DNA of 64,000 nucleotides from Candidatus Latescibacterota bacterium (GTDB lineage: Bacteria; Latescibacterota; UBA2968; GCA-2709665), in assembly GCA_965248435.1 (NCBI GenBank), contig OZ252100.1, forward strand, positions 4,914,102 to 4,978,101, given 5' to 3'. Made by a program: the position numbers and the translations under genes. The notes under the pieces were generated by a model, which had not been told where the DNA came from, ran no database searches, and saw only the letters and a program-made list of their open reading frames with translations. Shown here piece by piece: positions 13,081 to 64,000 of the stretch; position 1 is the first letter of the stretch, and each line of letters begins with the position of its first letter.

Positions 13081-13420
13081 CATGCCTCCGGCGGCCTACT
13101 TTTCTTGTCTCGCCACAAGAAAAGTAGGCAAAAGAAAGGCGCCGCTCAAACGCCGCGGGGGCTCGGGCCGCGGCACCTCACCCTCAGTAGAAAGGACGAT
13201 GGCGGCAATCAGGGCGGGACTCCTGCCCCGCCTGACGCCCACTATGGGACCGGCCCAGAGGGCCTAACCGCGTGGGAGGTGAAAGAACGAGGTTGCATGG
13301 GAGTCGCACACCGCGGCCCTGATGGCTTTGAGCGATGCATCTCGCGAGTTCGGGGTCGCTCGCAATCCGGCGAGTTTTACAAATAAAGCCTATTTTGTTA
13401 ACCCCAACATTCGGCGATGA
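13081..13420. repeat. modular structured repeat R1, copy (modules B + C2 + tail)
   Basis: ATGCCTCCGGCGGCC motif. Hairpin ctacttttcttgt/acaagaaaagtag and ggcgcc..ggcgcc. A ~140-nt domain closed by GGCCGCGG/CCGCGGCC. Tail '...ccaacattcggcga'. Confidence 0.7.
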
Positions 13421-13440
13421 ACCTTTTTTCGTCTGGTCGT

Positions 13441-13770
13441 TCATCTTTTGGTTTCCACTCGGGCGGCAAGCGGGCGGATCTTCTGGAGGTCCTTTCGGTA
13501 GCGCTGCTCTGATTCCCAAAGGTCCCTCGTACGCTGCGCATTCAACCAGAATTCTGGCGAATTCCCGAACAGACGGGAAAGCTTCAACGCCATGACAGGT
13601 GTGATCGCGCGTCTTTCCCTGAGCAGCTCATTCACTGTCTGACGCGAGACACCAATTCCCTTCGCGAGGGTTGCAGTTGTCAAATTGTAATCCGGAATGA
13701 AGTCTTCCCGAATCATCTCTCCCGGATGTGTCGGTGCGTATCTTCGCTTGCGCCTATTTGGTATGGACAT
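13441..13770 (-). CDS. higA: HigA antitoxin (XRE-family HTH)
   Basis: 109 aa. 'HPGEMIREDFIPDYNLTTATLAKGIGVSRQTVNELL' is the HigA/VapI-type HTH. Lies 13 nt downstream of higB. Confidence 0.75.
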   Translation of the reverse strand: MSIPNRRKRRYAPTHPGEMIREDFIPDYNLTTATLAKGIGVSRQTVNELLRERRAITPVMALKLSRLFGNSPEFWLNAQRTRDLWESEQRYRKDLQKIRPLAARVETKR

Positions 13771-13782
13771 ATGACCTCTCTC

Positions 13783-14067
13783 CTAATGATAGTCGGTGAT
13801 CTCGACGTCGAACGCATCGCCATCAGCAAAACGAAAGCAGATCCGCCATTGATCGTTGATCGATATGGAGAATTGCCCTCTCCGATCGCCTCTCAATGCG
13901 TGTAGTCTATTGCTAGGTGGGACCCTCAGGTCATCGAGTGTTTTCACAAGATGAACATATTCCAAACGACGAATCGCCCGCCTCAGAAGATTGGGTGGCA
14001 AGCGTTTCGATGTGCCGGTAATGAAAAGTTCCTCCGTTTCTCTGTTCCTGAACGACCTTATCATCAT
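13783..14067 (-). CDS. higB: HigB toxin (RelE/ParE superfamily mRNA interferase)
   Basis: 94 aa beginning 'MMIRSFRNRETEELF', a plasmid-maintenance killer-protein signature. Toxin-first order with higA. The region is low in GC. Confidence 0.7.
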   Translation of the reverse strand: MMIRSFRNRETEELFITGTSKRLPPNLLRRAIRRLEYVHLVKTLDDLRVPPSNRLHALRGDRRGQFSISINDQWRICFRFADGDAFDVEITDYH

Positions 14068-14231
14068 TGAAATGTAACGTGTAACGTGACGATTGTCAAG
14101 AGAGAATATGCAGAATTTTCGGGTAGCGAGGTAGGAAGATCCGTTGCACGTCGGATGGATAATCGATATTTTGCAGGCCGAGAGACGGAATCCCGTCGCC
14201 CTATCTTTTCGGTAGAATGGAGGTTTCCCTC

Positions 14232-16761: not shown

Positions 16762-16961
16762 CAATCGCGGAATCACCGCAGAGGCGCAGAGGCATGTCCC
16801 TGCGAAAGCAGGGATCGCAGAGGAAACCCGGCCCAATTTCATAACACCATTCCATGTCCGTAGAGACGCCCCGGCGGGGCGTCTCGAACCCGTAAATTGA
16901 TCGCACACTTGGATTGGGAATTGATAACGCGGTATCACACAAACCAGATTGATTCATCGAA

Positions 16962-18815: not shown

Positions 18816-18919
18816 CTTCAGCGATCGAAACACGGGGTTTCTGGCCTTATCATCTGGCGCCATTTGGAAAACTGGGGCCTTCCCGGTCTGGAGACTGGTT
18901 GCCCTCTCCACACAACCCC

Positions 18920-19117
18920 ATGCCTCCGGCGGCCAACTTTTCTTGCTCGCCCAAGAAAAGTTGGACTAAAGAAAGGCGCCCCTCAGGCGCCGGGGAGGCT
19001 GACTTTTCCGCGAACCGTCCCAGTAGCCCTAGAGATGTTTGTGTCCTTGGATCTCTTGTGGTGTCCACAAACGGGAGTGCTTGACGGATAAGCGCGGAAA
19101 AGTCCCACCCCACCCCC
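18920..19117. repeat. R1 copy (modules B + C1)
   Basis: ATGCCTCCGGCGGCC. Hairpin aacttttcttg/caagaaaagtt. Module C1 ends in 'aagcgcggaaaagtcccaccccacccc'. Confidence 0.7.
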
Positions 19118-19229
19118 AAACCGGTGGTCAGCCTTGCCGTTCTTGGTCTGGAATCACCCAAGCGAGAAGGCCGGCTAACATCTTGCGAACGTGGAATCGG
19201 GTCCTTATTTTAGAACCAGATAAAGAACC

Positions 19230-20588: not shown

Positions 20589-20702
20589 GCCCGACTGATT
20601 CCCTCGGAGTACCTATTCGATGATCTTGTGTCTTTCGTAGGGGTGAGGCAGGGCCTTGCCCCTAATTTTATTTTCGGAAGCTTTTAGAAAGGGGAGAACC
20701 CA

Positions 20703-22247
20703 GTGGCATCACACCCTTTGCTCTTCTACAATAACGACGGCAGTCATATGCTCTACCTCTCGCCTCCAGTTTCACTGGACGAGTTCGTGTATGAGACGGT
20801 CGGGTATCTTTTGGGCACTCAGGTGGACGCGGTAGCCTGCCACATGTTCGGGTTCGGCGACGCCGTTCCACTTTTTCCGACGGAAGTACCTGGAGCCCAG
20901 GGTATCGAGCGATCTGAGGTCGAATGGGTGAGTGAGTGGCGCCAGGAGGAAATCATCCGCCTCCTGTTCGATCAGGGGGTCGACCCGTGGAAGGCCTCGC
21001 TGGAGGCCGCGCACAACGCCGGTATGGAGTTCTGGGCGGCCCTGAGGTTCAACGAGCTGCACGAAGGGCGCTTCCAGTGGAAGAGCGAGTTCCGCGTGAA
21101 CCATCCGGAATACGAGCTGGGCGGCCAATGTGCCGCCGACGGGCACGATCCGGAAGATCAATGCGTCGGGCTCAATTTTTCGATCCCTGAAGTACGCGCC
21201 CATCGCCTTGCGCTGATCGAGGAGGTCTGCTCGCGCTATGACGTGGACGGGTTCGAATGGGACTTCAACCGGGAGCCGGGACACCACTTTCCGGACTTGA
21301 AGGCGGGCGCGCCGATCCTGACGGCCTACGTGCGCGAGGCCAGGAAGGTGCTGGATGCCGTTGGCGACAAGCGGGGACGTCCCGTGGGGTTCGGCGTTCG
21401 AGTACCGGGCACGATCGAGGCGTGTCACCGAATTTCGGTCGAGATCGAAAACTGGATCAGCGAAGGCCTTGTGGACTATATCTGTCCGTCTCCCTACGCC
21501 GACACGTCCACAGACCTGCCGTTCGACGAGTTCGTGGCCCTGGCCGACGGGAAGGATTGCCGGATCTACGGCTGCCCGACCGAGATGTGCGGCCCGGGAC
21601 TCCACTGGCCCCCGCCGATCGAGACGCTGCGCGCGGGTGCGTGGAACGCCTGGCGCCAGGGTGTGGACGGGGTCTACATCTTCAACTATAACCATCCGAT
21701 CGTGAGCGACATGGATATGTCGGGTCTCTTTCGCGAACTCGGCAGCCCGGCAACGCTGGAATTCAGGGACAAAACCTACAGCGTGGCCGGAAGGAGAGGG
21801 CGGCCGGATGTCTTCAAAGAGAAGGTGCATCAGCTCCCACTGGCACTGGAGGAGCGGCCGACCGGTCCGGGCCAGACAGTGCGCTTTCTCGTGGGCGACG
21901 ATCTGGAAACCGCGGCCGAGCGGGGTGTGCTGGACGCGGTGACGCTGGAGCTGATCGTCATCGGCAAGACGTATGAGGATGTGGTGGAGTTCAAGCTGAA
22001 TGGAAGGCCGCTGCCTGAAGGCCCCCAGTTCAGGATGTATGAAAAGTACAAGATGGGTCTCGGCTCCAACGCCTTCCAGGGCCGATACGCGCTGAGGTAT
22101 GACCTGAGATCGGGGGACTGGATCAAGCAGGGGTGGAACGAGGTCGAAGTGGCGTTGAGAAAGAGGACGCGTCGGGTGAGGCAGCCGTTCGAGGTCTACG
22201 AAATGAACCTGGAGGTCAAGTATCGGGTATTGCCGATGCGGGCTTAG
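20703..22247 (+). CDS. TIM-barrel glycoside-hydrolase-like protein, paralog 1
   Basis: 514 aa. About 85% identical to the protein at 23777..25339. 'HPEYELGG' and 'FEWDFNREPGHHF' suggest a glycosyl-hydrolase-like (beta/alpha)8 fold. Confidence 0.5.
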   Translation: MASHPLLFYNNDGSHMLYLSPPVSLDEFVYETVGYLLGTQVDAVACHMFGFGDAVPLFPTEVPGAQGIERSEVEWVSEWRQEEIIRLLFDQGVDPWKASLEAAHNAGMEFWAALRFNELHEGRFQWKSEFRVNHPEYELGGQCAADGHDPEDQCVGLNFSIPEVRAHRLALIEEVCSRYDVDGFEWDFNREPGHHFPDLKAGAPILTAYVREARKVLDAVGDKRGRPVGFGVRVPGTIEACHRISVEIENWISEGLVDYICPSPYADTSTDLPFDEFVALADGKDCRIYGCPTEMCGPGLHWPPPIETLRAGAWNAWRQGVDGVYIFNYNHPIVSDMDMSGLFRELGSPATLEFRDKTYSVAGRRGRPDVFKEKVHQLPLALEERPTGPGQTVRFLVGDDLETAAERGVLDAVTLELIVIGKTYEDVVEFKLNGRPLPEGPQFRMYEKYKMGLGSNAFQGRYALRYDLRSGDWIKQGWNEVEVALRKRTRRVRQPFEVYEMNLEVKYRVLPMRA

Positions 22248-22250
22248 TTC

Positions 22251-22283
22251 GTCGATCGTTGGTCGTGGATCGTGGATCGTGAA
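22251..22283. repeat. GATCGTG-type tandem heptamer array
   Basis: gtcgatcgttggtcgtggatcgtggatcgtgaactg lies immediately 3' of paralog 1 and abuts the IS3 left end. Confidence 0.6.
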
Positions 22284-22315: not shown

Positions 22316-23233
22316 TTAAGCAGCAAGGAGCTGCTCGTAGTTATGTGGACTTTTGTAGCCCAGGGTAGAGTGCCTCCGCCTGTGGTTGTAGAAACGGATG
22401 TAGTTTGAGATCCTTCTTCGCGCCTGGTTGACGGTGGCATAGGTATCGCGATGGACGCGTTCGATTTTCAGCGTTGAGAAGAAGGACTCTGCCACCGCAT
22501 TGTCAAAGCAGTCGCCTTTGCGACCCATACTAGACCGAATGCCGTTTTCAGCGACGGTATTTTGGAAAGCTTCACTGGTATACTGAGATCCACGATCAGA
22601 GTGAAAGATCAATTCCCTTGGGGGCTTTCGAGTTGCACGTGCCTTTTTGAAGGCTTCGACCGCTAGCTCCGCAGTCAAGGAGGCCCGGAGCGACCATCCG
22701 ACGATCTTCCGGGAGAACAGGTCCATCACGACGCACAGATAGGCGTGGCCTCCCACGATGGGGATGTAGCTGATGTCCGAGACCCACTTCTGGTTGACTT
22801 CATCGGCGTTGAACGCTCGACCCAGCAGGTCCGGAGACACGATGGCGTTTGAGGCTGCCTTTGTCGTGCACCGGAATTTGCGTGGGGTCCCAATGGCCTT
22901 CAAGCCCATCTTCTGCTTGATCCGGGCGATCCGGCTGGCACTGCAGACGATCCCGGCCTCGTTGAGCTCCTCCGTGATGCGAGGCGTGCCGTAAGTCTGG
23001 TCGGTCTCCCGGTGGATGGCTTTGATGTGGAGCGCCAGCACTTGGTTTTCTTGCTCCCGTTGGCTGACCGGACGGCTTTTCCAGGCGTAGTAACCGCTTT
23101 TGGAGATCCCAAGGGTCTTGCACATATGGGTTACTGAAAATCGGTCGCGGTTCTCCTCCACCAGGTGGAAGTTCATCTTTGGCGTCTGCTGAAAACGGCT
23201 AAGGCTTTTTTTAAAATGTCCCTCTCTTCGCAC
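22316..23233 (-). CDS. IS3-family transposase OrfB (DDE integrase core)
   Basis: 305 aa with an rve-type core and a C-terminal 'LGYKSP' motif. Expressed as an OrfAB fusion through the -1 frameshift. Confidence 0.75.
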   Translation of the reverse strand: MRREGHFKKSLSRFQQTPKMNFHLVEENRDRFSVTHMCKTLGISKSGYYAWKSRPVSQREQENQVLALHIKAIHRETDQTYGTPRITEELNEAGIVCSASRIARIKQKMGLKAIGTPRKFRCTTKAASNAIVSPDLLGRAFNADEVNQKWVSDISYIPIVGGHAYLCVVMDLFSRKIVGWSLRASLTAELAVEAFKKARATRKPPRELIFHSDRGSQYTSEAFQNTVAENGIRSSMGRKGDCFDNAVAESFFSTLKIERVHRDTYATVNQARRRISNYIRFYNHRRRHSTLGYKSPHNYEQLLAA

Positions 23234-23472
23234 AGATACTCGACCTGTCGCTTCAACTCGAAGATCTCCAGGTCCTTCGACTTGCGACGGCCTTTCCCGG
23301 GGAAGGCTTCCTGCTCATCCTCAACGAAGTCCCTCACCCAGCGACGCAACAACCCAACAGGCATGTCCAATTCTGTCGCGACATCTTTCGGAGTGCGGTC
23401 TTCAACCAGAATCTGCTGCACCGCTTCGACTTTGAACTCTCGGGAATACTTCCGACGCTTCCTGACACCCAT
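23173..23472 (-). CDS. IS3-family transposase OrfA (HTH)
   Basis: 99 aa, 'MGVRKRRKYSREFKVEAVQQI...'. Ends in a leucine-zipper-like segment before the slippery site. Confidence 0.75.
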   Translation of the reverse strand: MGVRKRRKYSREFKVEAVQQILVEDRTPKDVATELDMPVGLLRRWVRDFVEDEQEAFPGKGRRKSKDLEIFELKRQVEYLCEERDILKKALAVFSRRQR

Positions 23473-23776
23473 AGAAAGCCTCCTTGGATATGGGGAGACA
23501 TTCTACCTATACAAAAACCTTAACCGAGTGTCCACAAAATAGATAACCCCAAACGGCTGGATCACGGAGAAAGGCGGAAGAATGCGGAGGGCACGGAAGT
23601 ACACGGAAGAAAGGCGGAGGGTACGGAGACGATCTATTAGACTGAGCTACTTTACCGATTGAAAGGCATCACTGCGGTGGCGCAGAGGGCGTGGAGAAGA
23701 CATGTGGATCGTGGCGGGCGTCAGGCTGTAGCGCGACACCTTAGTCCAGTACAAAACAGATGCGAAGGAGAATCAA

Positions 23777-25339
23777 GTGGCATCACATCCCAGACTCTTC
23801 TACAACAACGACGGCAGTCACCTGATCTACCTCCCGCCTCCAGTTTCGCTCGACGCGTTCGTATATGAGACGGTAGGTTATCTGTTCGGCACCCAGGTGG
23901 ATGCGGTGGTCTGCCACATGTTCGGGTTCGGCGACGCCATTCCGCTTTTCCCGACCGAGGTGCCGGAGGCGAAGGGTATCGAGCTGGACCAGGTGGAATG
24001 GGTGAGTGAGTGGCGGCAGCAGGAGATTATGCGCCTTCTGTTCGATCAGGGGATCGACCCGTGGAAGGCCTCCCTGGAGGCCGCGCACGAGGCGGGCATG
24101 GAGTTCTGGGCGGGCCTGAGGTTCAACGACCTGCACGGAGGGCGGTTTCAGTGGAAGAGTGAATTCCGCGTGAACCACCCCGAATACGAACTGGGTAACC
24201 AGTGTCCGGCCGGGTCGCACCAGAGTGATCCAGAACGACCGTGTCACGGGCTCAACTTCGCTGTCCCTGAAGTGCGGGTCCACCGCCTGGCGCAGGTGGA
24301 GGAGGTCTGCACCCGTTATGATGTGGACGGGTTCGAGTGGGACCTGAATCGGCACCCGGGACACCACTTTCCGGACATGGAGGCGGGTGCGCCGATGCTC
24401 ACCGCCTACATACGTGAAGCGAAGGAGATGCTGAACGGCGTCGGAGATCGGCGGGGACGCCCCGTAAAGTTCAGCGTGCGCGTGCCGGGTACTGTTGAGG
24501 CCTGTCGCTGGATCGCGGTCGAAATCGAGACGTGGATTCGGGAAGGCCTTGTGGATTACGTATCTCCATCTGCCTACCACGACACGTCGACCGATCTGCC
24601 GTTCGACCATTTCGTTGCTCTGGCTGACGGAAAGGACGTCAGGATCTACGCGTCGCCTGGCGAGATGGTCGGGCCGGGACTCCACTGGCCCCCGCCGATC
24701 GAGACACTGCGCGCGGGCGCGTTCAACGCCTGGCAGCAGGGCGTGGATGGGGTCTACATCTTCAACTACAACCATCCGATCGTGAGCGACATGGATATGT
24801 CGGGTCTCTTTCGCGAACTCGGCAGCCCGGCAACACTCGAGTGGAGGGATAAACGGTATACCGTGGCTGGAGGGCATTCCGAGCTGAGGGGCGATTCCTA
24901 CGGTTTCAAATCGTGGAAACATCAACTTCCCGCGGCCCTGGAGGAACAGCCCACCGGTCCGGGCCACACCGTGCGCTTCCTCGTAGGCGACGATCTGCGG
25001 ACCGCGGCCGAGCGAGGCGTACTGGACGCGGTGACTCTGGAGCTGATCGTCATCGGCCAAACGTATGAAGATGTGGTGGAGTTCAAGCTGAATGGAAAGC
25101 CGCTGCCCGAAGGCCCCCAGTTCAGAATGTATCAAAAGTACAAGATGGGTCCCGGCGCGAACGCCTTCCAGGGCCGATACGCGCTGAGGTATGACCTGAG
25201 ATCGGGAGACTGGATCCGGCAGGGGTGGAACGAGGTCGAACTGGCGTTGAGAAAAAGGACGCGGCGGGTGAGGCAGCCGTTCGAGGTCTATGAGCTGAAC
25301 CTGGAGATCAAGTATCGCGTTCTGCCGATGAGACCTTAA
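23777..25339 (+). CDS. TIM-barrel glycoside-hydrolase-like protein, paralog 2
   Basis: 520 aa, collinear with paralog 1. Followed by the same heptamer repeat. Confidence 0.5.
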   Translation: MASHPRLFYNNDGSHLIYLPPPVSLDAFVYETVGYLFGTQVDAVVCHMFGFGDAIPLFPTEVPEAKGIELDQVEWVSEWRQQEIMRLLFDQGIDPWKASLEAAHEAGMEFWAGLRFNDLHGGRFQWKSEFRVNHPEYELGNQCPAGSHQSDPERPCHGLNFAVPEVRVHRLAQVEEVCTRYDVDGFEWDLNRHPGHHFPDMEAGAPMLTAYIREAKEMLNGVGDRRGRPVKFSVRVPGTVEACRWIAVEIETWIREGLVDYVSPSAYHDTSTDLPFDHFVALADGKDVRIYASPGEMVGPGLHWPPPIETLRAGAFNAWQQGVDGVYIFNYNHPIVSDMDMSGLFRELGSPATLEWRDKRYTVAGGHSELRGDSYGFKSWKHQLPAALEEQPTGPGHTVRFLVGDDLRTAAERGVLDAVTLELIVIGQTYEDVVEFKLNGKPLPEGPQFRMYQKYKMGPGANAFQGRYALRYDLRSGDWIRQGWNEVELALRKRTRRVRQPFEVYELNLEIKYRVLPMRP

Positions 25340-25340
25340 G

Positions 25341-25378
25341 TCGTGGATCGTGAATCGTGGATCGTGAAATCTGGATCG
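25341..25378. repeat. GATCGTG-type tandem heptamer array
   Basis: tcgtggatcgtgaatcgtggatcgtgaaatctggatcg lies immediately 3' of paralog 2. Confidence 0.6.
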
Positions 25379-25606: not shown

Positions 25607-26443
25607 ATGATTGTTGATGTACACACACACCTGACGCCCCTCGAGGGCTGGGGGCAGAGTTTCCTCGAGCAGGTCCCGAACGCGAACAACGCGGCCGTGG
25701 GCATAGACCTGCACGTCACACCCGAACGCCACTGGGCGGCGATGGAGGAGGTCGACAGGGCGATCGTGTTCGGGATCAACTCCCTCGCGCTCGAGATGCA
25801 CACGTCGAACGACTCGATCGCCGAGTATGCCAGCGCCCATTCCGAAAAGATCATCGGGTTCATGTCGATCGATCCGCACCAGGAGGACGCGATCGAAGAG
25901 ATCGACCGCTGCGTGCGTCAGCTCGGTTTGAGAGGGATCAAGATGAGCCCGGTCTACCAGCACTATCATCCGTGCGATGAGAAGGCGGAGCGCGTGCATC
26001 GACACGCGGAGAAGCTGGGCCTGCCGATCCTGACCCACGCGGCGTTTCACTCGATGTACCAGACGCCGATGAAGTGGGCGAATCCGATCCTGTATGACGA
26101 TGTGGCACAACAGTTTCCAAACCTGAAGATCATCCTCGCCCACATCGGCCTGCCCTGGTATTCGGACGCGATGGTCGTCGCGCGTAAGCACCCGAACGTA
26201 TTCGCGGACATCTCGCCCGTGTTCCACCTCAGGTGGATCAACCGTGCGCTCGATCTGTTTCACGAATTCTCGGTGATTCAGAAGCTTCTGTTCGGGACCG
26301 ACTTTCCGTTCACAACGACCGATCGGGCGATACAGAACTTGAGAAAGGCTCAACAGATTGGTCCCAAGGAGGCACGTGTGCCGGACGAGGAGATCGAGGC
26401 GCTGATCCACCGTGATTCTCTGAAGCTGCTCGGCCTGGATTGA
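25607..26443 (+). CDS. amidohydrolase-2 family (TIM-barrel metal-dependent hydrolase)
   Basis: 278 aa with the 'MIVDVHTHLTP' metal-binding start typical of PF04909. Confidence 0.7.
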   Translation: MIVDVHTHLTPLEGWGQSFLEQVPNANNAAVGIDLHVTPERHWAAMEEVDRAIVFGINSLALEMHTSNDSIAEYASAHSEKIIGFMSIDPHQEDAIEEIDRCVRQLGLRGIKMSPVYQHYHPCDEKAERVHRHAEKLGLPILTHAAFHSMYQTPMKWANPILYDDVAQQFPNLKIILAHIGLPWYSDAMVVARKHPNVFADISPVFHLRWINRALDLFHEFSVIQKLLFGTDFPFTTTDRAIQNLRKAQQIGPKEARVPDEEIEALIHRDSLKLLGLD

Positions 26444-26487
26444 TCGTGAATCGTGAATCGTGGATGGTGGATCGTGGATCGTAAATC
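26441..26487. repeat. GATCGTG-type tandem heptamer array
   Basis: tgatcgtgaatcgtgaatcgtggatggtggatcgtggatcgtaaatcg starts at the stop codon of the amidohydrolase gene. Confidence 0.6.
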
Positions 26488-26580
26488 GCATCTAAAGTCA
26501 TTGAATCGGCTGTTGAAGAGGGTTTTTAAACTGGTGTTCATTGGGACATAGCTTATGCCGGATATGTCAGGGGAGAAGAT

Positions 26581-28489: not shown

Positions 28490-28560
28490 TCGCGTGGATC
28501 GTGAATCGTTGATCGTGGATCGTCATCTAATTGCGGATTGCGGATTTCGGATTGTGGAAT
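28487..28560. repeat. GATCGTG heptamer array followed by a GGATT(G/T)CG heptamer array
   Basis: gatcgcgtggatcgtgaatcgttgatcgtggatcgtc is followed by attgcggattgcggatttcggattgtggaatgaaagg. The second part recurs at 47438-47490 inside a long repeat copy. Confidence 0.55.
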
Positions 28561-30692: not shown

Positions 30693-30715
30693 CGGCATCT
30701 GGAAATCGAGAAAAA

Positions 30716-30754
30716 CCCCGCACTTACACTAGGTAAGTGTGGGGTTTTTTTTAT
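30716..30754 (+). terminator. rho-independent terminator
   Basis: ccccgcacttacac-tagg-gtaagtgtgggg stem followed by T8, 24 nt after the LarA stop. Confidence 0.75.
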
Positions 30755-30769
30755 CAAGTAGGGACAAGT

Positions 30770-31011: not shown

Positions 31012-31039
31012 GGCCTTGAAGTGAATCGCTTTCCGGAGG

Positions 31040-31620: not shown

Positions 31621-31633
31621 AAATGCCCGTACT

Positions 31634-33007: not shown

Positions 33008-33108
33008 ACCCTCCGGGCAAGTGATCCCCTCGTTTGGGAACGACGACGGGCGCTCAACATGTCAAATACACGCTGTGCCCTCTGTGGTTCTGCAGAATAT
33101 GTTGTGTC

Positions 33109-33771: not shown

Positions 33772-33821
33772 GGTACCCTCCCTTTAGGGTATGGTGAAAG
33801 CACGGTCCTGGACCGCAATGG

Positions 33822-40250: not shown

Positions 40251-40251
40251 A

Positions 40252-46697: not shown

Positions 46698-46731
46698 GAG
46701 TCGTTATCAGCGCCTGAAGCGGAGGACCGGC

Positions 46732-47339: not shown

Positions 47340-48195
47340 GTTGATTACCAGGGAGGGGTGCCCCGAAGGGCTTGCCCCTGCAAGATTTAAAGCAGGGGGC
47401 GGGGTGGGTTATATCGCGAGCACAAAAAATCATGCCTCCGGCGGCCGCACAATTGCGGATTTGGGATTGCGGAATGAAAGGCAAAAGGGCGTGTTTTCGG
47501 AATCAGAAAATAAATGTGGTAGGAGCCAGCTCCTGCTGGCGAACCCATGAATGGGGCTTCGCATTCGAGGGTTTCCGATCGATGAATCGGTCGTGTCCCA
47601 CAGGACACGACCTGAGACGATCCACCAACGACGGCCCTTGCCTCCGGCGGAGAGGCCAGTTCCCTCCTGGTCGGGGTGGGTAATATCGCGAACTTCACAA
47701 CATCATGCCTCCGGCGGCCCGCCCGTCGGCTCGCTGTCTTCGATCACGAACTCGCCGTGGATAATCACGAAGTCGATGCCGACAGGCTTCTGAATGTTAC
47801 CGGTACCCAACTTTTCTTGCTCGCCCAAGAAAAGGCCTACCGCAACCGCCACCCTGGGGCACAGCGCGGCTGTGCCCCTACACTCCAAGATTTCGCCGCA
47901 GGGGCGCGGCGTGCCGCGCCCGAGGACAAAAGAAAGGCGCCCCTCAGGCGCCGGGGAGGCTTCGGCCGCGGTACCTCACCCTCAGTGGCATAAACAGTCC
48001 ACGGCAGGAGGGCCAAATCCTCACCACGCGCTCGCGATCACTGAGGAACCCACCCGCTGGGAGGAGAAATGGGCTGGTTGCATCGGAGTCGCACACCGCG
48101 GCCCCGACGGTTTTGAGCGATGACATTGCTTTCGTTCAATTCTTCCCCCTTTATCAAAGGGGGACCGAGGGGGATTTCGAAATGTATCACAATTA
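47340..48195. repeat. R1 composite copy, the longest (module D + two ATGCCTCCGGCGGCC motifs + A + gene fragment + B + C3 + R2)
   Basis: Module order read directly from the sequence. Ends with cccccttt-atc-aaaggggg and 'gagggggatttcgaaatgtatcac'. Confidence 0.7.
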
Positions 48196-49155
48196 TTGTT
48201 TTTGTACGAGATAGCCGAGGCGTTTGTCCACGACGTTCAGGAGGGGTTCGCCTTCCAAATAACGGCGGAGGTTTTCAACGAAGATGTCACCCTGGTTGTC
48301 CCAGCCTTCTGCTGACCAGCCTGCGACGTGGGGGGTGAGGACGACGTTCTCCATGTCCCACAACGGGCTGGACTCTGGGAGCGGCTCTTGTTCGAATACG
48401 TCCAGCCCGGCGCCCCCGATCTTGTTCGACTGAAGCGCCTGGATGAGGTCGGATTCGTTGATGATGCCGCCTCGGGCCACGTTGACGACCAGGGCCGTCT
48501 CTTTCATGTGGTCGAAACACTCCGCATTCAGGAGCCCTTTCGTCCTCGCATTCAGAGGCAGGGCCACGGCGACGACATCTGCTAGAGAAAGGGCTTCCAG
48601 CATGCCCTCCGGTTTGAAGATTCGATCCACGCCTTCAGGAGGCGTTTCTACCTGCGCGTCTACCGCGATGACCTCCATGCCCAGTGCGTGGAGTCGACTG
48701 ACCATGCCCCGCCCGATGCTGCCGAGCCCGAGGACGCAGACGCACTTTCCCTCGATCTGGGTGACTGTGCGATTCCGCTCCCACGTCCGGGTTTTGCGGT
48801 TTCGCTCGAAGTGAGAGATCAGGCGGGTAGAAGCCAGTATCAGCGAGATTGCGTGCTCCGCCATCGCCGTGTCGTAGGCCCCGGCGGTGTTGGTCATGAT
48901 GACGTCGCTTTCGATCATCTCAGGGTAGAGCATGGTCTCGAACCCGACCCCGATGCTCTGGACCCAGCGAAGCTGCTTGGCGGCCAGGAAGGCGTCCCTC
49001 GGAATCCGACCGTAGACCACCTCCGCATCCCCGACTTCGCTCATCAGGTCGGCATCCTTCACTGCGATTGCGTTTACCCTGGGTGATATCTCCCGCATGG
49101 CGGGGACCCACCTATCCCATTCCCCTTCCATCATCACGAGCTTGATTTCTGACAC
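48193..49155 (-). CDS. D-isomer-specific 2-hydroxyacid dehydrogenase
   Basis: 'GKCVCVLGLGSIGRGM' NAD-binding motif and catalytic R/E/H residues. Confidence 0.75.
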   Translation of the reverse strand: MSEIKLVMMEGEWDRWVPAMREISPRVNAIAVKDADLMSEVGDAEVVYGRIPRDAFLAAKQLRWVQSIGVGFETMLYPEMIESDVIMTNTAGAYDTAMAEHAISLILASTRLISHFERNRKTRTWERNRTVTQIEGKCVCVLGLGSIGRGMVSRLHALGMEVIAVDAQVETPPEGVDRIFKPEGMLEALSLADVVAVALPLNARTKGLLNAECFDHMKETALVVNVARGGIINESDLIQALQSNKIGGAGLDVFEQEPLPESSPLWDMENVVLTPHVAGWSAEGWDNQGDIFVENLRRYLEGEPLLNVVDKRLGYLVQKQ

Positions 49156-49234: not shown

Positions 49235-49600
49235 GGACATTCGCCTGTCACCACAACTTCCCCGTGCCTCCGGCGGCCTACTTGTCTCGCCACAAGAAAA
49301 GTAGGCAAAAGAAAGGCGCCGCTCAAGCGCCGCGGAGGCTTGGGCCGCGGCACCTTACCCTCAGCGGACCGATCGGACGCAGCAAAAGCCCATACTCCTC
49401 CCCCCACCTTACGCCCGCTGTGGGACCCGCCCCCACTCCGCGAATTTCCATTCGCCCCTGCCAACACCCCGAACCCCGCACCGTCCCACAGAGGGCCCCA
49501 ACCCCTTGGGAGAACGAACATTGGTGGTCGCAAAGGAGTCGCACACCGCGGCCCTGAGGCATTCGGCGGACCCACCGCAATTGCAATCGTCGCAACGCGC
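49235..49600. repeat. R1 copy (B + divergent C)
   Basis: gtgcctccggcggcc variant and ctacttgtctcgccacaagaaaagtag hairpin. Closing stem GGCCGCGGCACC...GCACACCGCGGCC. Confidence 0.6.
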
Positions 49601-51974: not shown

Positions 51975-53025
51975 CAGCTGGATTCAATGACTAAGTGCAA
52001 CACTTGGACTTGAAGACTTCAGCTGGTGTTTTGAAGTTAAGACATTTTCTTGGTCGGTTGTTGATCCGGTTCTGAATTTTCTTTAACTCGTGTTTGCTGA
52101 CCTTTGAGAAGTCTGTCTTCTTGGGGAGGTATCTGCGGACCAGACCGATAGCGTTTTCCACAGCGCCTCGCTCCCAGCTGTGGAACGGTTTGCAGAAATA
52201 GGATTTGGTGCCAAGCACCTCGTTGACCCGTTGATGTTGGCCGTTTTCGGATCCGTTGTCATATGTGATGCTCTTCCTCATGTGGGGAGGATGTCGCCCA
52301 AGGCGTCGATTAATCGCTTCGGCGACCTCCGAGGGTCCGTTCTTTGCCAGCTTAGCCAGGTGTAGGTATCTCGACGATCGCTCAAGACAAGCGCCAACGG
52401 CCTGTTTGCTCTCACGAGAGATGATGGTGTCGGATTCCCAGTGGCCAGGTTGTTTCCGTTTTTCGATGTAACGGGGACGTCGATCGATCGAAATACGGCC
52501 TGGAATGTGGCTTTCCCGGTGTTTTCGGGTATGCCACCGCGGCTTTCGTTTTTTGTGAGCTCGGGATAAGCAAGCAACCAGATCCCGCTGCTTGTGCACC
52601 TTTGGATCGTAGATATACTGGTAGATGGCTTCGTGGCTGATACCCGCGCTCGGACGCTCCTCGGGAAGCCTCCCAGCGATCAACTCGGGAGACCATCCTT
52701 GCTTGAGTTTGGTCTCGACATATCGCCGGATAACCGGATTCTTCAGCCGTTTCCGCTTGCCGGCCTCCCGCTTACGTTTCTCAGCCCTTCTGTGAGCCTG
52801 GAGGCCCGAGTAACTCTCAGCTATCGGGGACGGATTACGTTTCAACTCTCTTGAAATCGTGCTGGCGCTCCGGTCAAGGGCCTTGGCAATATCTCTAAGG
52901 CTTGCACCAGTGGCTCGACAAAGCGCAATCTGCTCGCGTTCGTCTATCGTAAGATGCTTGTAATTGTTTCCCATACACTTAGGATAGGACAGTTGCTACC
53001 CTAAGTGTTGCACTTCCTTATTGAA
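51975..53025 (-). mobile_element. IS30-family insertion sequence
   Basis: Low GC. Single transposase gene. Terminal inverted repeats share AAGTGCAACACTT(G/A)GG (left ~51975-52005, right ~52995-53025). Confidence 0.7.
51991..52974 (-). CDS. IS30-family transposase
   Basis: 327 aa. N-terminal HTH ('LTIDEREQIALCRATGASLRDIAKALDRSASTISRELKRN') and a DDE core ('WESDTI', 'ITYDNGSE'). Confidence 0.8.
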   Translation of the reverse strand: MGNNYKHLTIDEREQIALCRATGASLRDIAKALDRSASTISRELKRNPSPIAESYSGLQAHRRAEKRKREAGKRKRLKNPVIRRYVETKLKQGWSPELIAGRLPEERPSAGISHEAIYQYIYDPKVHKQRDLVACLSRAHKKRKPRWHTRKHRESHIPGRISIDRRPRYIEKRKQPGHWESDTIISRESKQAVGACLERSSRYLHLAKLAKNGPSEVAEAINRRLGRHPPHMRKSITYDNGSENGQHQRVNEVLGTKSYFCKPFHSWERGAVENAIGLVRRYLPKKTDFSKVSKHELKKIQNRINNRPRKCLNFKTPAEVFKSKCCT

Positions 53026-53164
53026 CTCAGGTCATGGATAGCAATCAGATCGAAGAGGCTGCGCCATCAGGTGGGCCTGGACCACGGCGCGGTCAAATTT
53101 ATTCGCCGCCAGGAGGCGGCTCCTACCGGATCTACCGGTGTTTGAATTCATGTCATTCCCTCAA

Positions 53165-53660
53165 GTCATGTATAAGGTAGGAGCCAGCTCCTGCTGGCGA
53201 ACCCCTGAATGGGGGATTCATATTCAAGGGGCATATCAAACGAGGATCACAAGGTTCACAAAATCATGCCTCCGGCGGCCTACCCTTCGGCAGGCTCAGG
53301 GCATGCTTTTCTTGCTCGCCCAAGAAAAGTTGGACAAAAGAAAGGCTCCCCTCAGCCCCTCGATACACCGATCGCTCCCAGAAGCGGTCGCGGTCGGCAC
53401 TCGGGGGCTATTTTTCCGCTGAACCGTCCCAGTGGCCTTAGAGAGATAAGTGTCCTTGGATCTTTTGCGGCCTCTAAGAACGAGGGTGCTTGACGGATAA
53501 GCGCGGAAAAGTCCCACCCCACCCCAAACAGGTGGGTTTCTTCGCGCCTTTCGTGCTTCTTCGTGTCCTTCGTGATCCAGCGTTTGCGATCCACGAACGA
53601 CGGCCTTAGCCTCCGGCGGCCATTGTATGCGTAGGAGCCAACTCCCGTTGGCGACGGGAA
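53165..53660. repeat. R1 copy (A + B + C1) plus a partial A-like fragment at ~53595-53660
   Basis: ggtaggagccagctcctgctggcgaacccctgaatgggg ... atgcctccggcggcc ... C1. Confidence 0.65.
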
Positions 53661-53680
53661 AAATCACGACGTTGGAAGAA

Positions 53681-55224: not shown

Positions 55225-55550
55225 CCCCTCCCGGGAGGGGTGCCCCGAAGGGGCGGGGTGGGTGCAATCAGGATCTCTGAACAACATGCCTCCGGCGGCC
55301 AACCCTTCGGCAGGCTCAGGGCATGCTTTTCTTGCTCTCGCCCAAGAAAAGTAGGCAAAAGAAGGGCGCCCCTCAGGCGCCGGGGAGGCTCCGGCCGCGG
55401 CACCTCACCCTCAGTGGTATAAACAGTCCACGGCAGGAGGGTCAAATCCTCACCACGCGCTCGCGATCACTGAGGAACCAACCCGCTGGGAGGAGAAATG
55501 GGCTGGTTGCATCGGAGTCGCACACCGCGGCCCCGATTGCATTTGCGAGT
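55225..55550. repeat. R1 copy (D + B + truncated C3)
   Basis: gggaggggtgccccgaagggg...atgcctccggcggccaac... The C3 module is truncated after 'gcacaccgcggcccc'. Confidence 0.65.
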
Positions 55551-56419: not shown

Positions 56420-56735
56420 CCCTCCACCCCACAACCCCATGCCTCCGGCGTCCCGTCCGTCGGCTCGCCGTCTTCGATCACGAACTCGCCGTTGACGAAC
56501 ACGAAGTCGATGCCGACGGGCTTCTGAACGTTTGCTACCGGTACCCAACTTTTCTTGCTCGCCCAAGAAAAGTTGGGCAAAAGAAGGGCGCCCCTCAGGC
56601 GCCGGGGAGGCTGATTTTTCCACGAACTCTCAGTGGCCTTAGAGAGGTTTGTGTCCTTGGATCGTTTGTGACGTCCATAAACGAAGGTGCTTGACGGATA
56701 AGCGCGGAAAAATCCCACCCCTCCCCCCGAGGGAG
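56420..56735. repeat. R1 copy (amidohydrolase 3' fragment + B + C1)
   Basis: Same captured fragment as at 42.2 kb and 47.7 kb. On the minus strand it is in frame with the SDR gene, which creates an artefactual long ORF. Confidence 0.65.
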
Positions 56736-56784
56736 ACGCCTCGGCGGGGCATCTCTACGGGTGATGAATCGGGTCATTCCGCAA

Positions 56785-58049: not shown

Positions 58050-58470
58050 TTGACCCACGCAAGAACCGATGCCTCCGGCGGCCTACCCTTCGGCAAGCTC
58101 AGGGCATGCTTTTCTCGTCTCGCCACAAGAAAAGGCCTACCGCAACCGCCACCCTTGGGCACAGCGCGGCTGTGCCCCTACACTCCAGGATTTCGCCGCA
58201 GGGGCTCGGGCCGCGGCACCTCACCCTCAGTGGAAAGGACGGTGGCGGCAATCAGGGCGGGACTCCCGCCCCGCCTGACGCCCATTATGGGACCGGCCCA
58301 GAGGGCCTAACCGCGTGGGAGGTGAAAGAACGAGGTTGCATGGGAGTCGCACACCGCGGCCCTGATGGATTTGAGCGATGCATTTCCCGAGTTTCAGAGC
58401 CGGCAACTGGGCGAGTTCTTAAAATCGAGTTCAGAATTACCCTAACTTCCAACATTCAGCGAAGCCAAGG
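58050..58470. repeat. R1 copy (B + extra hairpin module + C2 + tail)
   Basis: High identity to the copies at 13.1 kb and 42.4 kb. Confidence 0.7.
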
Positions 58471-60443: not shown

Positions 60444-60669
60444 GTTAGGCGGGATCACGAAGGGACACGAAATCCCACGAAGAATACGAAAGACAGCCAG
60501 GAGCGCCGGAGCTGGAGTAATGGGGGTATGGAGAAATGGAAAGGCAGGCTTTGGAGTACTCCATCACTCCAGTAGTGCAATACTCCAGGATCGGGAGGCT
60601 GAAAGGTTGCGGCATCGGACGAATCAAGTGACGAAGCAATAGAAAGGCAAACACATTGAGGGGATCAAC

Positions 60670-61428: not shown

Positions 61429-61499
61429 GATTGTGGCGGTGTCCGTTTGTCGGAATCCCTAATGCCCAACCCTGAGCCGGCCGACTTAAACGGCGAATT

Positions 61500-62165
61500 G
61501 GATCCGGTAGGAGCCAGCTCCTGCTGGCGAACCCCTGAATGGGGATTCATATTCAGGGGGCGTATCAAACGAGGATCACAAGGTTCACAAAACAATGCCT
61601 CCGGCGGCCAACTTTTCTTGCTCGCCCAAGAAAAGTTGGACAAAAGAAGGGCTCCCCTCAAGTGCCGGGGAGGCTGACTTTTCCGCGAACCGTCTCAGTG
61701 ACCCTAGAGATATTTGTGTCCTTGGATCTTTTGTGGTGTCCACAAACGGGAGTGCTTGACGGATAAGCGCGGAAAATTCCCACCCCACCCCACGAGCAGA
61801 GTGAATAAAATTGTATCCGGTAGGAGCCAGCTCCTGCTGGCGAACCCCTGAATGGGGATTCATATTCAAGGGGCGTATCAAACGAGGATCACAAGGTTCA
61901 CAAAACAATACCTCCGGCGGCCAACTTTTCTTGCTCGCCCAAGAAAAGTTGGACAAAAGAAGGGCGCCGCTCAAACGCCGCGGGGGCTGGGGCCGCGGCA
62001 CCTCACCCTCAGTGGAAAGGACGGTGGCGGCAATCAGGGCGGGACTCCTGCCCCTCCTGACGCCCACTATGGGACCGGCCCAGAGGGCCTAACCGCGTGG
62101 GAGGTGAAAGAACGAGGTTGCAAGGGAGTCGCACACCGCGGCCCTGATGGGTTTCAGTGATCCTT
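61500..62165. repeat. two tandem R1 copies (A-B-C1 then A-B-C2)
   Basis: Module A recurs at 61509 and 61820, about 95% identical. The two units differ only in the C module. Confidence 0.7.
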
Positions 62166-62430
62166 TTCGTGGAGTACACCTCGTCTAGTGGATGAGTAGG
62201 GTGGATCTGACGAGATACGCTTCACGAGATACGAGATGCGGTAACAAAGTCCCCTCTTAGGTCGGGGTGGGTTACGATCGCGGCGCCGGACATGAATTTC
62301 CAAAGCGGGGAGTAGTCTCTTCGCAAAAGGCATACTTCCCCCTTTCCGAAAGGGGGACTGAGGGGGATTTCAAATTGAATCACGATGACTCTTCAGATTA
62401 TTTGAGCAGGGTAAAGCCCGGGTCCAACAC

Positions 62431-63441
62431 ATGGCGAACAACCAACTAAGCGCGGCGGTGATCGGGTTAGGGGTCGGTGGCAGGCATATCACCGCCTACA
62501 GAGAGGCCGGTGCGGACGTGCTGGCCATTTGCGACACGGACGAGGACATCCTTGGACAGGTCGGGGATGTTTATGGGATAGCGGATCGCTATACCGATTT
62601 TCGTGAGCTGGGGATGCGGGACGACATCGATGTCGTGTCCGTATGCACCCCCGCTCATCTGCACACCGATCCCGCCGTGGCGATGATGGCTTCAGGGAAG
62701 CACGTCCTTATCGAAATGCCGATGGCTTCTACTTTCGAGGATATAGAACGGATCGTAGACACGGCGCGGCGGACGAACCGGAAGGTGATGCACGGAGGTC
62801 AGGTCGCGTACAGCGAGGCATTCGACGAGATCAAGCGAGGGGTGACGTCAGGCGAATTTGGTGATGTCTACTACGCCGAGGGGGATTACATCGCCAGCCG
62901 TTTGGATCTGCTGCGGGGCGGGTGGCGGCAGCATCTCCGTTCGAACTATAACGTCGTCGCGGACCGGGGCGTCGTACCCATAGACGTAGTGCAGTGGATC
63001 GTTGACGATGCCCCCACGGAGGTTATGGCATACGGGAACGGAATCGCCGGGCGTGGAGAAGGGCTTAAGGCCACCGACTGCATCCTCTCCATGATTCGCT
63101 TCGAGGGTGGGTGCATTGCAAAATCGCTCGTCACGATGGGTGCCGCGAGGCCGGGGTTCAGGAATCTGCAGATCTATGGAACGAAGAAGACGTATGTGAC
63201 CGAACCCTCACCTCCGGGTCACCTCCTCTCGGATGCAGAGTCGCGCAGGTGGACGCATCTCGAGTTCAAGGAGGATCGACGTGACGCACGGAGGTCGTTG
63301 ATCGCGGACCTGTTGTGGGCGATCAAGACAGATACCGAGCCCCGGGCGAGCCTGGTTCAGGCGGCGCGCACGGCGGGGATCTGCGCGGCGGCGTTCGAGT
63401 CATTGAAGGCGGGAAGGCCAGTTAAAGTGCCACAGTTTTAG
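62431..63441 (+). CDS. Gfo/Idh/MocA family oxidoreductase
   Basis: 'AVIGLGVGGRHITAY' Rossmann motif and an 'EMP' motif. Confidence 0.7.
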   Translation: MANNQLSAAVIGLGVGGRHITAYREAGADVLAICDTDEDILGQVGDVYGIADRYTDFRELGMRDDIDVVSVCTPAHLHTDPAVAMMASGKHVLIEMPMASTFEDIERIVDTARRTNRKVMHGGQVAYSEAFDEIKRGVTSGEFGDVYYAEGDYIASRLDLLRGGWRQHLRSNYNVVADRGVVPIDVVQWIVDDAPTEVMAYGNGIAGRGEGLKATDCILSMIRFEGGCIAKSLVTMGAARPGFRNLQIYGTKKTYVTEPSPPGHLLSDAESRRWTHLEFKEDRRDARRSLIADLLWAIKTDTEPRASLVQAARTAGICAAAFESLKAGRPVKVPQF

Positions 63442-63442
63442 G

Positions 63443-64000
63443 TCCGCGAACCGTCTCAGTGACCCTGGAGATATTTGTGTCCTTGGATCTTTTGTGGTGT
63501 CCACAAACGGGAGTGCTTGACGGATAAGCGCGGAAAAGTCCCACCCCACCCCACGGGCATCGTGAATGAAATTGTATGCGGTAGGAGCCAGGAACCTCTG
63601 AATGGAGCTTTCATATTCAAGAGCCATATCAAACGAGGATCACAAGGTTCACAAAACAATGCCTCCGGCGGCCTACTTTTCTTGTCTCGCCACAAGAAAA
63701 GTAGGCAAAAGAAAGGCGCCGCTCAGGCGCCGCGGGGGCTTTGGCCGCGGCACCTCACCCTCAGTGGCATAAACAGTCCACGGCAGGAAGGCCAAATCCT
63801 CACCACGCGCTCACGATCACTGAGGAACCAACCCGCTGGGATGAGAAATGGTCTGGTTGCATGGGAGTCGCACACCGCGGCCCCGACGGTTTTGAGCGAT
63901 GACATTGCTTTCGTTCAATTCTTCCCCCTTTGGAAAAGGCCTGTCCCGAGCGAGCATGCGAGTCGAGGGAGGGACTGAGGGGGATTTCAAGATGCATCAC
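63443..64000. repeat. R1 composite copy (C1 + A + B + C3 + R2), truncated by the window end
   Basis: Begins 2 nt after the stop of the 62431 gene. Confidence 0.65.

Follow-up and report, generated by a model that had tools for sequence, protein, structure and literature searches.

Strand-polarised mosaic repeats resembling REP/BIME elements in the intergenic spacers of a Latescibacterota chromosome

INTRODUCTION

The 64,000-nt stretch of contig OZ252100.1 analysed here (Candidatus Latescibacterota bacterium, positions 4,914,102 to 4,978,101; hereafter the window) carries between its genes a family of modular repeats, R1, which raises the question of what these repeats are and how they came to fill so many intergenic spacers. 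A first-pass annotation, made from the letters alone, had seen in R1 a structured family whose compensated stems were under selection and whose modules included a swapped core. Its picture of a real, abundant, modular, intergenic and recently spread family stands; selection on RNA structure is not supported by the covariation, and the swapped core is not confirmed. With a probability of roughly one half, we read R1 as a lineage-specific, strand-polarised, non-autonomous family of hairpin-rich mosaics, of the kind of repetitive extragenic palindromes (REPs) and bacterial interspersed mosaic elements (BIMEs), spread as single-stranded DNA by an enzyme encoded outside the window and shuffled by recombination.

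RESULTS

Copy number, location and authenticity of R1

The 15-mer ATGCCTCCGGCGGCC, allowing up to two mismatches, is found 14 times in the window and always on the + strand, where 0.34 matches are expected and none of 100 shuffled controls reached 14. A covariance model of the core shared by the copies (modules B0, hp1 and P3, described below), built as the first-pass annotation had suggested, detected 12 complete cores, likewise all on the + strand, and self-BLAST placed direct R1 repeats at 11 intergenic loci from 13.07 kb to the window end. The same self-comparison of the 64 kb revealed neither inverted R1 copies nor terminal inverted repeats. Altogether R1 amounts to ~5.5 kb, which is ~9% of the window and ~22% of the stretch from 42 to 64 kb.

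Every copy is intergenic, because the long open reading frames (ORFs) owe their overlap with the repeats to over-extended start calls: the SDR domain begins at about residue 117 of its ORF, and the proteins of relatives are shorter. Coding potential of the repeats was rejected on the same ground, the overlapping ORFs being artefacts and the only protein-like module, F, being a fragment. The neighbours are ordinary metabolic genes on both strands, which according to Pfam encode an AMP-binding enzyme, an aldehyde dehydrogenase, DUF1223, a 2-hydroxyacid dehydrogenase, PfkB, MFS and Nramp-like transporters, SDR, an aminotransferase, gamma-glutamyltransferase (GGT), an HpcH aldolase and a GFO/IDH/MocA oxidoreductase.

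An assembly artefact was also rejected, since R1 copies occur in independent Latescibacterota assemblies: a Candidatus Latescibacterota metagenome-assembled genome (L012), three JGI metagenome contigs (L015, L022 and L025), a Logan contig (L028, SRR28397287) and two ENA contigs (L030, ERZ25766727; L031, ERZ25068966). L030 is 96-98% identical to the window, L028 ~95% and L031 85-90%; three further relatives, L026, L027 and L029, show 80-85% nucleotide identity to it. A scan of 185,579 species genomes and of JGI metagenomes with the 19-mer GGAGTCGCACACCGCGGCC gave 25 matches, four of them true family members and the others due to chance. R1 had no match in viral contigs, plasmids or phages; ARAGORN found no tRNA or tmRNA gene, and an origin of R1 from such genes was rejected. 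A literature search on GTAGGAGC or on Latescibacterota repeats returned nothing relevant. The earlier description of an abundant, near-identical, modular family, intergenic throughout, is thus borne out by 14 motif matches, 12 cores and 11 loci, and the copies are not confined to this contig; such confinement would have counted heavily against it.

Anatomy of the scaffold and its modules

The base scaffold, 220-310 nt long, follows a constant order of C-rich leader (for example CCACCCCACAACCCC), B0, hp1, A-rich linker (CAAAAGAARGG), P3 and C domain. B0 is a near-palindrome, GCCTCCGGCGGC, centred on CCGG. The hp1 module is a perfect A/T-rich hairpin of 10-13 bp in two compensated variants (AACTTTTCTTG/CAAGAAAAGTT and TACTTTTCTTGT/ACAAGAAAAGTA), both of which had been correctly reported before, and P3 is a G+C-rich hairpin of the form GGCGCC-loop-GGCGCC. 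The C domain, of 120-210 nt, is either C1 (~120 nt) or a type closed by GGCCGCGG...CCGCGGCC, with three subfamilies: C2 (154 nt), C3 (141 nt) and C4 (~212 nt, with a C-rich insert). C2, C3 and C4 can be aligned along their whole length, with nearly identical ends and centres ~50-65% identical, so that they are diverged subfamilies of one domain rather than conserved ends around exchanged cores, as had been thought. Every pair of C2 copies differs at 4 of 154 positions (97.4% identity, close to the ~98% first estimated for some of them); this star-like pattern points to a burst that had a single source. Between C3 copies the identity is 95-97%.

Modules A, A2, A3 and D1-D2 lie upstream of B0, Bx is a 24-nt insert 3' of B0, G-H is a nested module pair, and a T, T2 tail and module E often follow the C domain. 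The first list of modules (A, B, C1, C2, C3 and D) proved correct for all its members; it lacked C4 (49343-49554) as well as F, B0', Bx, G, H, T and E. Module F, of which the window has three copies, stands between B0 and a similar box, B0', F and B0' together spanning ~100 nt. Its minus-strand translation, ...PVGIDFV(F/I)(V/I)(N/H)GEFVIED(G/S)EPT(D/G)G, presumably resembles the C-terminus of an amidohydrolase. F therefore looks like a captured antisense 3' fragment of an amidohydrolase-like gene, an origin overlooked at first, and capture of flanking DNA of this kind is typical of sloppy end recognition or recombination.

Module E consists of a hairpin, CCCCCTTT...AAAGGGGG, then GAGGGGGATTTCA and ATG, often as ATGCATCAC (Met-His-His), so that it resembles a recurring ribosome-binding site to which the beginning of a very short ORF is attached. 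It is found at 1856-1915, 42724-42760, 48133-48215, 62326-62420 and 63920-64000; at 42762 and 62431 a real gene follows it. The C1 3' end (CCCACCCCACCCC; 19103-19116, 53512-53525, 56713-56726, 61778-61791 and 63539-63552) and the D2 box (GGGGCGGGGTGGGT; for example 42162-42175 and 55250-55263), which precedes many B0 boxes, are reverse complements of each other; both are G4/i-motif-like tracts.

The R1 elements of the window are as follows; three of the 11 loci (47340-48193, 53100-53680 and 61496-62380) comprise more than one entry.

13070-13425 (+): simple element with C-rich leader, B0 13082-13096, hp1 13099-13124, P3 13131-13163, C2 13166-13319 and T/T2, between a convergent 209-aa ORF (+) and higA (-)
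18908-19127 (+): simple element with leader, B0, hp1, P3 and C1 19004-19116, fold z = -5.6, between the AMP-binding enzyme gene (+) and the aldehyde dehydrogenase gene (+)
42060-42750 (+): composite with REP-A (module A) 42078-42101, D2, B0 42198, F 42216-42287, B0' 42291-42304, hp1, G-H doublet 42355-42419, P3, C2 42462-42615, T, T2 and E
47340-47700 (+): D1-D2, orphan B0 47432-47446, REP-A 47519-47542 and A2; also present in L030
47661-48193 (+): composite with D2, B0 47705, F 47723-47794, B0', hp1, G-H 47857-47921, P3, C3 47964-48104, T and E
49251-49563 (+): B0 (GTGCC variant), hp1 with a 5-nt deletion, P3 and C4 49343-49554 (212 nt, C-rich insert), between divergent 2-hydroxyacid dehydrogenase (-) and PfkB (+) genes; spacer of 535 nt versus 135 nt in L027
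53102-53201: inverted REP-A doublet, 26-nt arms 85% complementary and 48 nt apart, GTAG ends inward (BIME-like, or like a REPIN, the REP doublet)
53169-53536 (+): REP-A, A2, A3, B0 53266, Bx, hp1, degenerate P3 and C1 53413-53525, adjoining an IS30-family element at 51978-53030
53600-53680 (+): B0-like box 53607-53621 and REP-A 53631-53654, the latter the only R1 piece with an ortholog in distant relatives (GTAGGAGCC; position 6151 in L026 and L027, 6180 in L029)
55230-55545 (+): D1-D2, B0 55286, Bx, hp1, P3 and C3 55393-55533
56430-56731 (+): leader, B0 56439, F 56457-56528, B0', hp1, P3 and C1
58069-58470 (+): B0, Bx, hp1, G (inverted REP; H and P3 deleted), C2 58209-58362 and T tail
61496-61800 (+): tandem unit 1, with REP-A, A2, A3, B0 61595, hp1, P3 and C1
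61808-62380 (+): tandem unit 2, with REP-A, A2, A3, B0 61908, hp1, P3, C2 61991-62144, T, heptamer repeats, D2 and E
63440-64000 (+), to the window end: 5'-truncated C1 starting at the GFO stop codon, partial REP-A, A3, B0 63659, hp1, P3, C3 63743-63883, T and E

GTAG-tagged REP hairpins and inverted doublets

REPs are imperfect palindromes of 20-40 nt whose hairpin foot is preceded on the 5' side by GTAG; two of them often join as an inverted pair to form BIMEs or REPINs, and they are bound and cut as single-stranded DNA by the REP-associated transposase RAYT/TnpA-REP (PMC3333891, PMC3733652, PMC6006769). Three R1 modules have precisely this make-up. Module A reads GTAG-GA-GCCAGC-TCCT-GCTGGC-GA, and eight sites bear its GTAGGAGCC head, seven of which keep the full hairpin. 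Module H reads GTAG-GGGCGCGGC-GT-GCCGCGCCC (GTAGGGGCGCGGC-GT-GCCGCGCCC including the head), and module G, on the minus strand, GTAG-GGGCACAGC-CGC-GCTGTGCCC (GTAGGGGCACAGC-CGC-GCTGTGCCC including the head). The motif GTAGGRGC occurs at 12 sites in the window against 2.6 expected, all 12 being intergenic and inside R1, each with a hairpin of 6-9 bp on its 3' side. The stems of REP-A exist in three compensated versions (GCCAGC/GCTGGC, GCCAAC/GTTGGC and GCCGCC/GGCGGC).

REP-A mostly occurs as a single copy on the + strand. An inverted doublet is formed by G and H, whose GTAG ends point inward across a 16-nt linker (42355-42419 and 47857-47921); its third occurrence is the G remnant at 58157. An A-A doublet precedes C1 both at the 53-kb locus of the window and in L031 (12468-12712), where more GTAG doublets are nested inside P3 of R1 copies. 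The REP definition of GTAG plus palindrome hence fits A, H and minus-strand G, but not the scaffold formed by B0, hp1, P3 and the C domain (the B-C scaffold). As for REPs and BIMEs in general, copy number is high, the R1 elements that carry GTAGGRGC hairpins are extragenic, and inverted REP pairs with a short linker are present (A-A and G-H). REP-type hairpins are therefore abundant in this lineage, and R1 is, like a BIME, a mosaic; the earlier reading had modules A and B right and missed the REP nature of A, G and H together with their inverted doublets.

A third class of GTAG hairpin (GTAGAGAYGCCCC...) lies outside the R1 modules, at 16860-16884 (+) and ~56740-56766 (-), and a similar one is found in L027 at ~8515-8545, within the orthologous SDR-aminotransferase spacer.

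Strand polarity

All 14 B0 boxes and all 12 B cores stand on the + strand. Gene pairs flanking the 11 loci are convergent in two cases, divergent in two, tandem on the + strand in four and tandem on the - strand in three; since these orientations are mixed, the strand of the elements is independent of the direction of transcription, and the two-sided probability that 11 loci share one strand by chance is ~0.001. The first-pass annotation had proposed looking for strand bias relative to neighbouring genes, but had not noticed this polarity. GC skew is positive in 26 of 32 windows along the stretch and the cumulative skew climbs throughout; therefore the + strand has leading-strand composition and corresponds to the lagging-strand template. 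Elements of the IS200/IS605 group use the lagging-strand template for both excision and insertion, and their orientation is biased in this way across the genome (PMC5027513). In all four independent external copies, too, the R1 '+' strand is the G-rich strand of the flanks, a support that is weak because in L012 the G-rich strand coincides with gene direction. The polarity was observed on one 64-kb stretch, a segment of one replichore, and on four short contigs.

One orientation between almost every gene over 17 kb, whatever the gene direction, could also recall a series of attC-like sites, as in a sedentary chromosomal integron or a cassette array of another site-specific kind, and hp1 variant 1 ends in GTTGGAC, which fits GTTRRRY. 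However, hp1 variant 2 has TAC/GTA instead of AAC/GTT, gene order is the same as in repeat-free relatives, and the genes are full-size metabolic genes. The window encodes no integron integrase (IntI), its only integrase-like ORF being a truncated fragment (40252-40500) at the edge of an unrelated island. The integron array was rejected, and we give it next to no credence.

Turnover between relatives and strains

Gene order from DUF1223 to HpcH is conserved in L026, L027 and L029, in which the syntenic spacers measure 61-236 nt versus 360-1730 nt in the window. The covariance model detected no R1 core in 43 kb of these syntenic relatives, and at seven sites they have short spacers devoid of R1 sequence. 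Spacers cannot be aligned at 80-85% identity and are replaced wholesale at 95-98%. L030, 96-97% identical there, lacks the whole 42-kb composite, and its ortholog of the 47.7-kb copy is without F and G-H. In the Nramp-SDR spacer (55230-55545) L030 is identical up to B0 and continues with hp1 containing a 117-nt miniature inverted-repeat transposable element (MITE), G-H, P3 and C1 instead of the Bx, hp1, P3 and C3 of the window; at the 56430-56731 site it lacks F and again carries the MITE in the hp1 loop. This MITE is A/T-rich, has imperfect terminal inverted repeats, occupies two hp1 loops of L030 (14319-14435 and 15604-15720), is flanked by a CTCGC direct repeat, likely a 5-bp target duplication, and is absent from the window.

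The aminotransferase-GGT spacer (58069-58470) illustrates the extent of these exchanges. L030 has unrelated (CGTATCT)n heptamer-repeat DNA in place of R1, the spacer of L027 is only 45 nt long, and L028 has B0-hp1-P3-T without C2, consistent with a deletion between GCCGCGG repeats; L028 also bears a B element 3' of the GGT stop codon, where the window has none. The more distant L031 carries R1 at the orthologous HpcH-GFO spacer and elsewhere. By these sequence comparisons, the R1 family is older than the species, strongly expanded in this lineage and reshuffled on the time scale of strain divergence. The earlier suggestion of recent spread or gene conversion agrees with these data, since sites are empty at 80-85% identity and modules differ at 95-98%.

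Since strains differ by replacements beginning at shared modules, recombination or gene conversion between copies clearly contributes. It might even be proposed that R1 has no dedicated transposase at all, the spacers behaving as exchangeable cassettes that spread by homologous or illegitimate recombination and gene conversion, possibly after DNA uptake. Each strain difference is indeed a replacement starting at a shared module (B0) or spanning the whole spacer, deletions end in short direct repeats (GCCGCGG in L028, GGGGC at 58.2 kb), F is bounded by B0 and the similar B0', and tandem units occur at 61.5-62.2 kb. Nevertheless, gene conversion needs homology and alone cannot seed spacers that lack it, whereas the relatives' spacers are free of R1 at seven sites; nor does this proposal explain the uniform polarity or the star-like 97.4% identity of dispersed C2 copies. 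We regard recombination as unlikely to be the sole cause.

Two genes bordered by R1 in the window, the cNMP-binding gene at 46579-47244 and the GFO/IDH/MocA gene at 62431-63441, are absent at those positions in L027 and L029, which hints that R1 repeats could mark, or help, gene gain.

Transposases of the window

Among ~60 window ORFs scanned against Pfam there is no Y1/HUH transposase, TnpB or IscB. The earlier statement that no cognate transposase is evident in the window is correct to this extent, and two other transposases, with ends unrelated to R1, are present.

51978-53030: complete IS30-family element, transposase 51991-52974 (-), 28-nt terminal inverted repeats
22316-23472: IS3-family element (HTH_Tnp_1 and rve), ends unrelated to R1

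These genes bring to mind a conventional MITE, with terminal inverted repeats and target-site duplications, moved by a DDE transposase such as those of the window. The IS30-family element does lie beside one R1 copy, D2 (GGGGCGGGGTGGGT), being reverse-complementary to the 3' end of C1, could yield D...C1 composites with inverted ends, and a true 117-nt MITE with a CTCGC direct repeat was inserted in the hp1 loops of L030. However, the IS30 terminal repeats (CTGGATTCAATGACTAAGTGCAACACTT) have no similarity to any R1 module, and the same insertion sequence is found 99% identical on an unrelated contig of 45% G+C (L032, another replicon) that has no R1, while it is missing beside the 53-kb copy in the 98% identical L030. 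Furthermore, self-comparison shows no inverted R1 repeats, D2 and C1 are combined in no window copy, and DDE elements do not produce single-strand polarity. R1 was accordingly not placed among MITEs of this type, an origin that we consider very improbable.

At least seven further copies or fragments of the IS30 transposase are recorded on a contig as long as the source chromosome (5,656,476 bp). The IS3-family element lies between two paralogous GHL10-like genes (20693-22274 and 23767-25366) that are 76-88% identical.

Secondary structure and the RNA question

The first-pass annotation took the compensated stems as proof of a structure under selection and likened C2 and C3 to a structured RNA. 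The hairpins are real, and compensatory changes were observed from A-T to T-A in hp1 and from U-A to C-G in one C-domain helix, while CC[G/C]C...G[C/G]GG in the P3 region is coupled in 12 copies, recombinant haplotypes included. Overall, only 2 of 44 pairs changed on both sides, and 93.6% of cells are paired versus 92.4% in column shuffles; C1 has no compensatory pairs, and its predicted fold shifted when sequences were added. Compensated hairpins do not separate RNA from DNA models, because they are equally expected of DNA read as single strands, and the claim of RNA-level selection could not be upheld. Rfam 15 gave no match to the whole window at gathering thresholds and, with E up to 10 on two repeat-dense stretches, only chance-level matches (E 0.4-3, to eukaryotic snoRNA and lncRNA models), so that the unit is not identified as a known Rfam family; such a match was what the first-pass annotation had named as grounds for abandoning its proposal. 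No conserved promoter was found on either strand of R1.

An RNA role, if any, would fit the minus strand better according to these models. There, P3 followed by TTTCTTTTG scores as an intrinsic terminator, a hairpin with T-run that had been missed. The B-C scaffold could be regarded as a multicopy gene for a structured non-coding RNA, similar to a small RNA (sRNA) or a guide with a variable centre, read from the minus strand and ended by P3 and a U-run, with the REPs as passengers. Minus-strand P3 followed by YTTCTTTTG is terminator-like in 7-9 copies, and 11 of 13 elements fold better as minus than as plus strand, the consensus fold having -50.8 kcal/mol and four compensatory pairs on the minus strand versus -45.5 kcal/mol and one pair on the plus strand. 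Mismatches in P3 are mostly A.C on the + strand, hence G.U on the minus strand (13 vs 5). The perfect covariation of the P3-region pair in 12 copies points the same way, as do the nearly invariant ends of the C domain around a centre diverged into three subfamilies, and the 3' 45 nt of C1, invariant even in L031 at 85-90% identity. Yet the Rfam, promoter and covariation results above speak against such a gene, and the fold z of C2 and C3 elements is modest (-1.6 to -3.5). Besides, 14 copies in 64 kb, filling ~22% of the 42-64 kb stretch, are a density far above that of known sRNA families, and an entire C domain can be missing from, or exchanged in, the orthologous copy of another strain with no apparent harm. 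A non-coding RNA gene is thus conceivable but doubtful.

More broadly, the B-C scaffold might constitute a new element class in its own right, either as a minus-strand multicopy RNA or as a new single-stranded DNA mobile element with its own enzyme, which we think unlikely. In the RNA version, modelled on transposon-encoded guide RNAs, the conserved ends may bind a partner protein and the diverged C centre may give specificity; in either version, the scaffold may be the preferred landing pad for REP doublets.

DISCUSSION

A single-stranded DNA model for R1

Taken together, the anatomy, the GTAG hairpins with their doublets, the polarity, the empty orthologous sites and the turnover of modules between strains lead us to favour mosaics of the REP/BIME kind. 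At the replication fork, a Y1/HUH enzyme, either a RAYT or a TnpA like that of IS200/IS605, would copy R1 and insert the copies in the form of single-stranded DNA; its gene would lie outside the window on the 5.66-Mb chromosome. The scaffold has taken up, as nested units, REP hairpins tagged by GTAG (A, H and minus-strand G), inverted doublets (G-H and A-A) and the gene fragment F, and homologous recombination or gene conversion between dispersed copies would then reshuffle the modules. Insertion at the fork would explain the uniform orientation on the G-rich strand whatever the direction of neighbouring genes, and recombination between copies would account for the mosaic pattern and for whole-module differences between near-identical strains. 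The single-stranded mechanism, its enzyme, and the use of the machinery of the embedded REPs by the B-C scaffold are what we infer from these data.

Several points weigh against this proposal. Pfam recognises no RAYT, TnpA or TnpB gene in the window, six R1 loci have no REP module at all, and the B-C scaffold, which every copy shares, itself lacks a GTAG-tagged hairpin. No clean junction between filled and empty sites was obtained, strain differences replacing the whole spacer or everything from B0 on, and the left flank of R1 is C/A-rich with no fixed motif. The skew on the four short contigs may reflect gene direction only. Finally, uniform orientation has not been reported for classical REPs and BIMEs, unlike R1, and their extra motifs are much shorter than R1 C domains.

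Other features of the window

A HigB-like toxin and HTH antitoxin pair (13441-14067, -) lies directly downstream of the 13-kb R1 copy. An island of ~10 kb (30700-40850) is missing from L030, where LarA directly precedes DUF6772; it has lower G+C and mostly minus-strand genes (a cupin, two APH kinases, a histidine kinase and a BNR protein), with a transposase HTH gene (31231-31551) and the truncated phage-integrase fragment (40252-40500) at its edges. Inside it, a second repeat unrelated to R1 (TAACGTTCTCGGCACCCACGAACCCGC...GGGTTGGGCG) occurs once in each of four successive ORFs on the minus strand, at the end nearest the start (33815-33885, 34886-34956, 36498-36538 and 37574-37614). Tandem heptamers (TCGTGGA/TCGTGAA, CTTCGTG and GAGATAC) occur at gene ends and inside spacers at 22249-22281, 25341-25378, 26443-26488, 28493-28558, 53538-53574, 60450-60520 and 62190-62240.

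Significance

If the density of the window holds genome-wide, this uncultured Latescibacterota lineage would contain many copies of a mosaic repeat that occupies about one-fifth of a gene-dense 22-kb stretch and differs among strains whose genes are 95-98% identical. With relatives that are repeat-free, lightly or heavily invaded, R1 offers a natural system for studying how DNA of the REP/BIME type invades, nests and recombines. In practice, such repeats will break short-read assemblies and can be used as strain markers. R1 also puts terminator-like hairpins and long structured spacers between co-transcribed genes, and the B-C scaffold, by its invariant ends and diverged centre, is a candidate new transposon end or RNA.

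Comparison with known systems

To date, we have found no description in the literature of such a repeat family in Latescibacterota. The head GTAGGAGC is found in Pseudomonas REPs too. R1 shares with REP, BIME and REPIN sequences the extragenic location, the high copy number, the short hairpins with 5'-GTAG and compensated stems, the inverted doublets, the mosaics with other conserved motifs, and a number and composition that vary between strains (PMC3333891, PMC3733652, PMC3116915). It departs from them in that its shared B0-hp1-P3-C core is not a GTAG hairpin and, at 220-310 nt, is far above BIME linker motifs, in elements that reach ~850 nt, in having all scaffolds on one strand, and in that no RAYT is encoded in the window.

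Similarly, the non-autonomous elements derived from IS200/IS605 (PATEs), moved by single-strand 'peel and paste', resemble R1 in their lack of terminal inverted repeats, in conserved hairpin-bearing ends around a freer centre and in their similar size range, and the orientation of IS200/IS605 elements is tied to the G-rich lagging-strand template (PMC5027513). Unlike this group, R1 has neither TnpA nor TnpB in the window and no conserved 4-5-nt target definable beside its left end, and no Rfam 15 match ties its C domains to a described transposon-associated RNA. On its minus strand, P3 is like a Rho-independent terminator (a G+C hairpin of 6-7 bp and a T-rich run), but it is not a plain one, being part of a much larger repeat and facing the wrong direction at four loci between + strand genes. 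The pneumococcal BOX elements (boxA-boxB-boxC) and the small non-coding repeats of Deinococcus are likewise intergenic and highly structured, and each draws on a constant repertoire of modules whose number and order vary; R1 has no sequence relationship with them and differs in more module types, nested REP doublets, a gene fragment and a strict polarity. On balance, R1 is most like the REP/BIME elements of E. coli and Pseudomonas and is not a proven new RNA, while its B-C scaffold, outside the known classes, remains unclassified.

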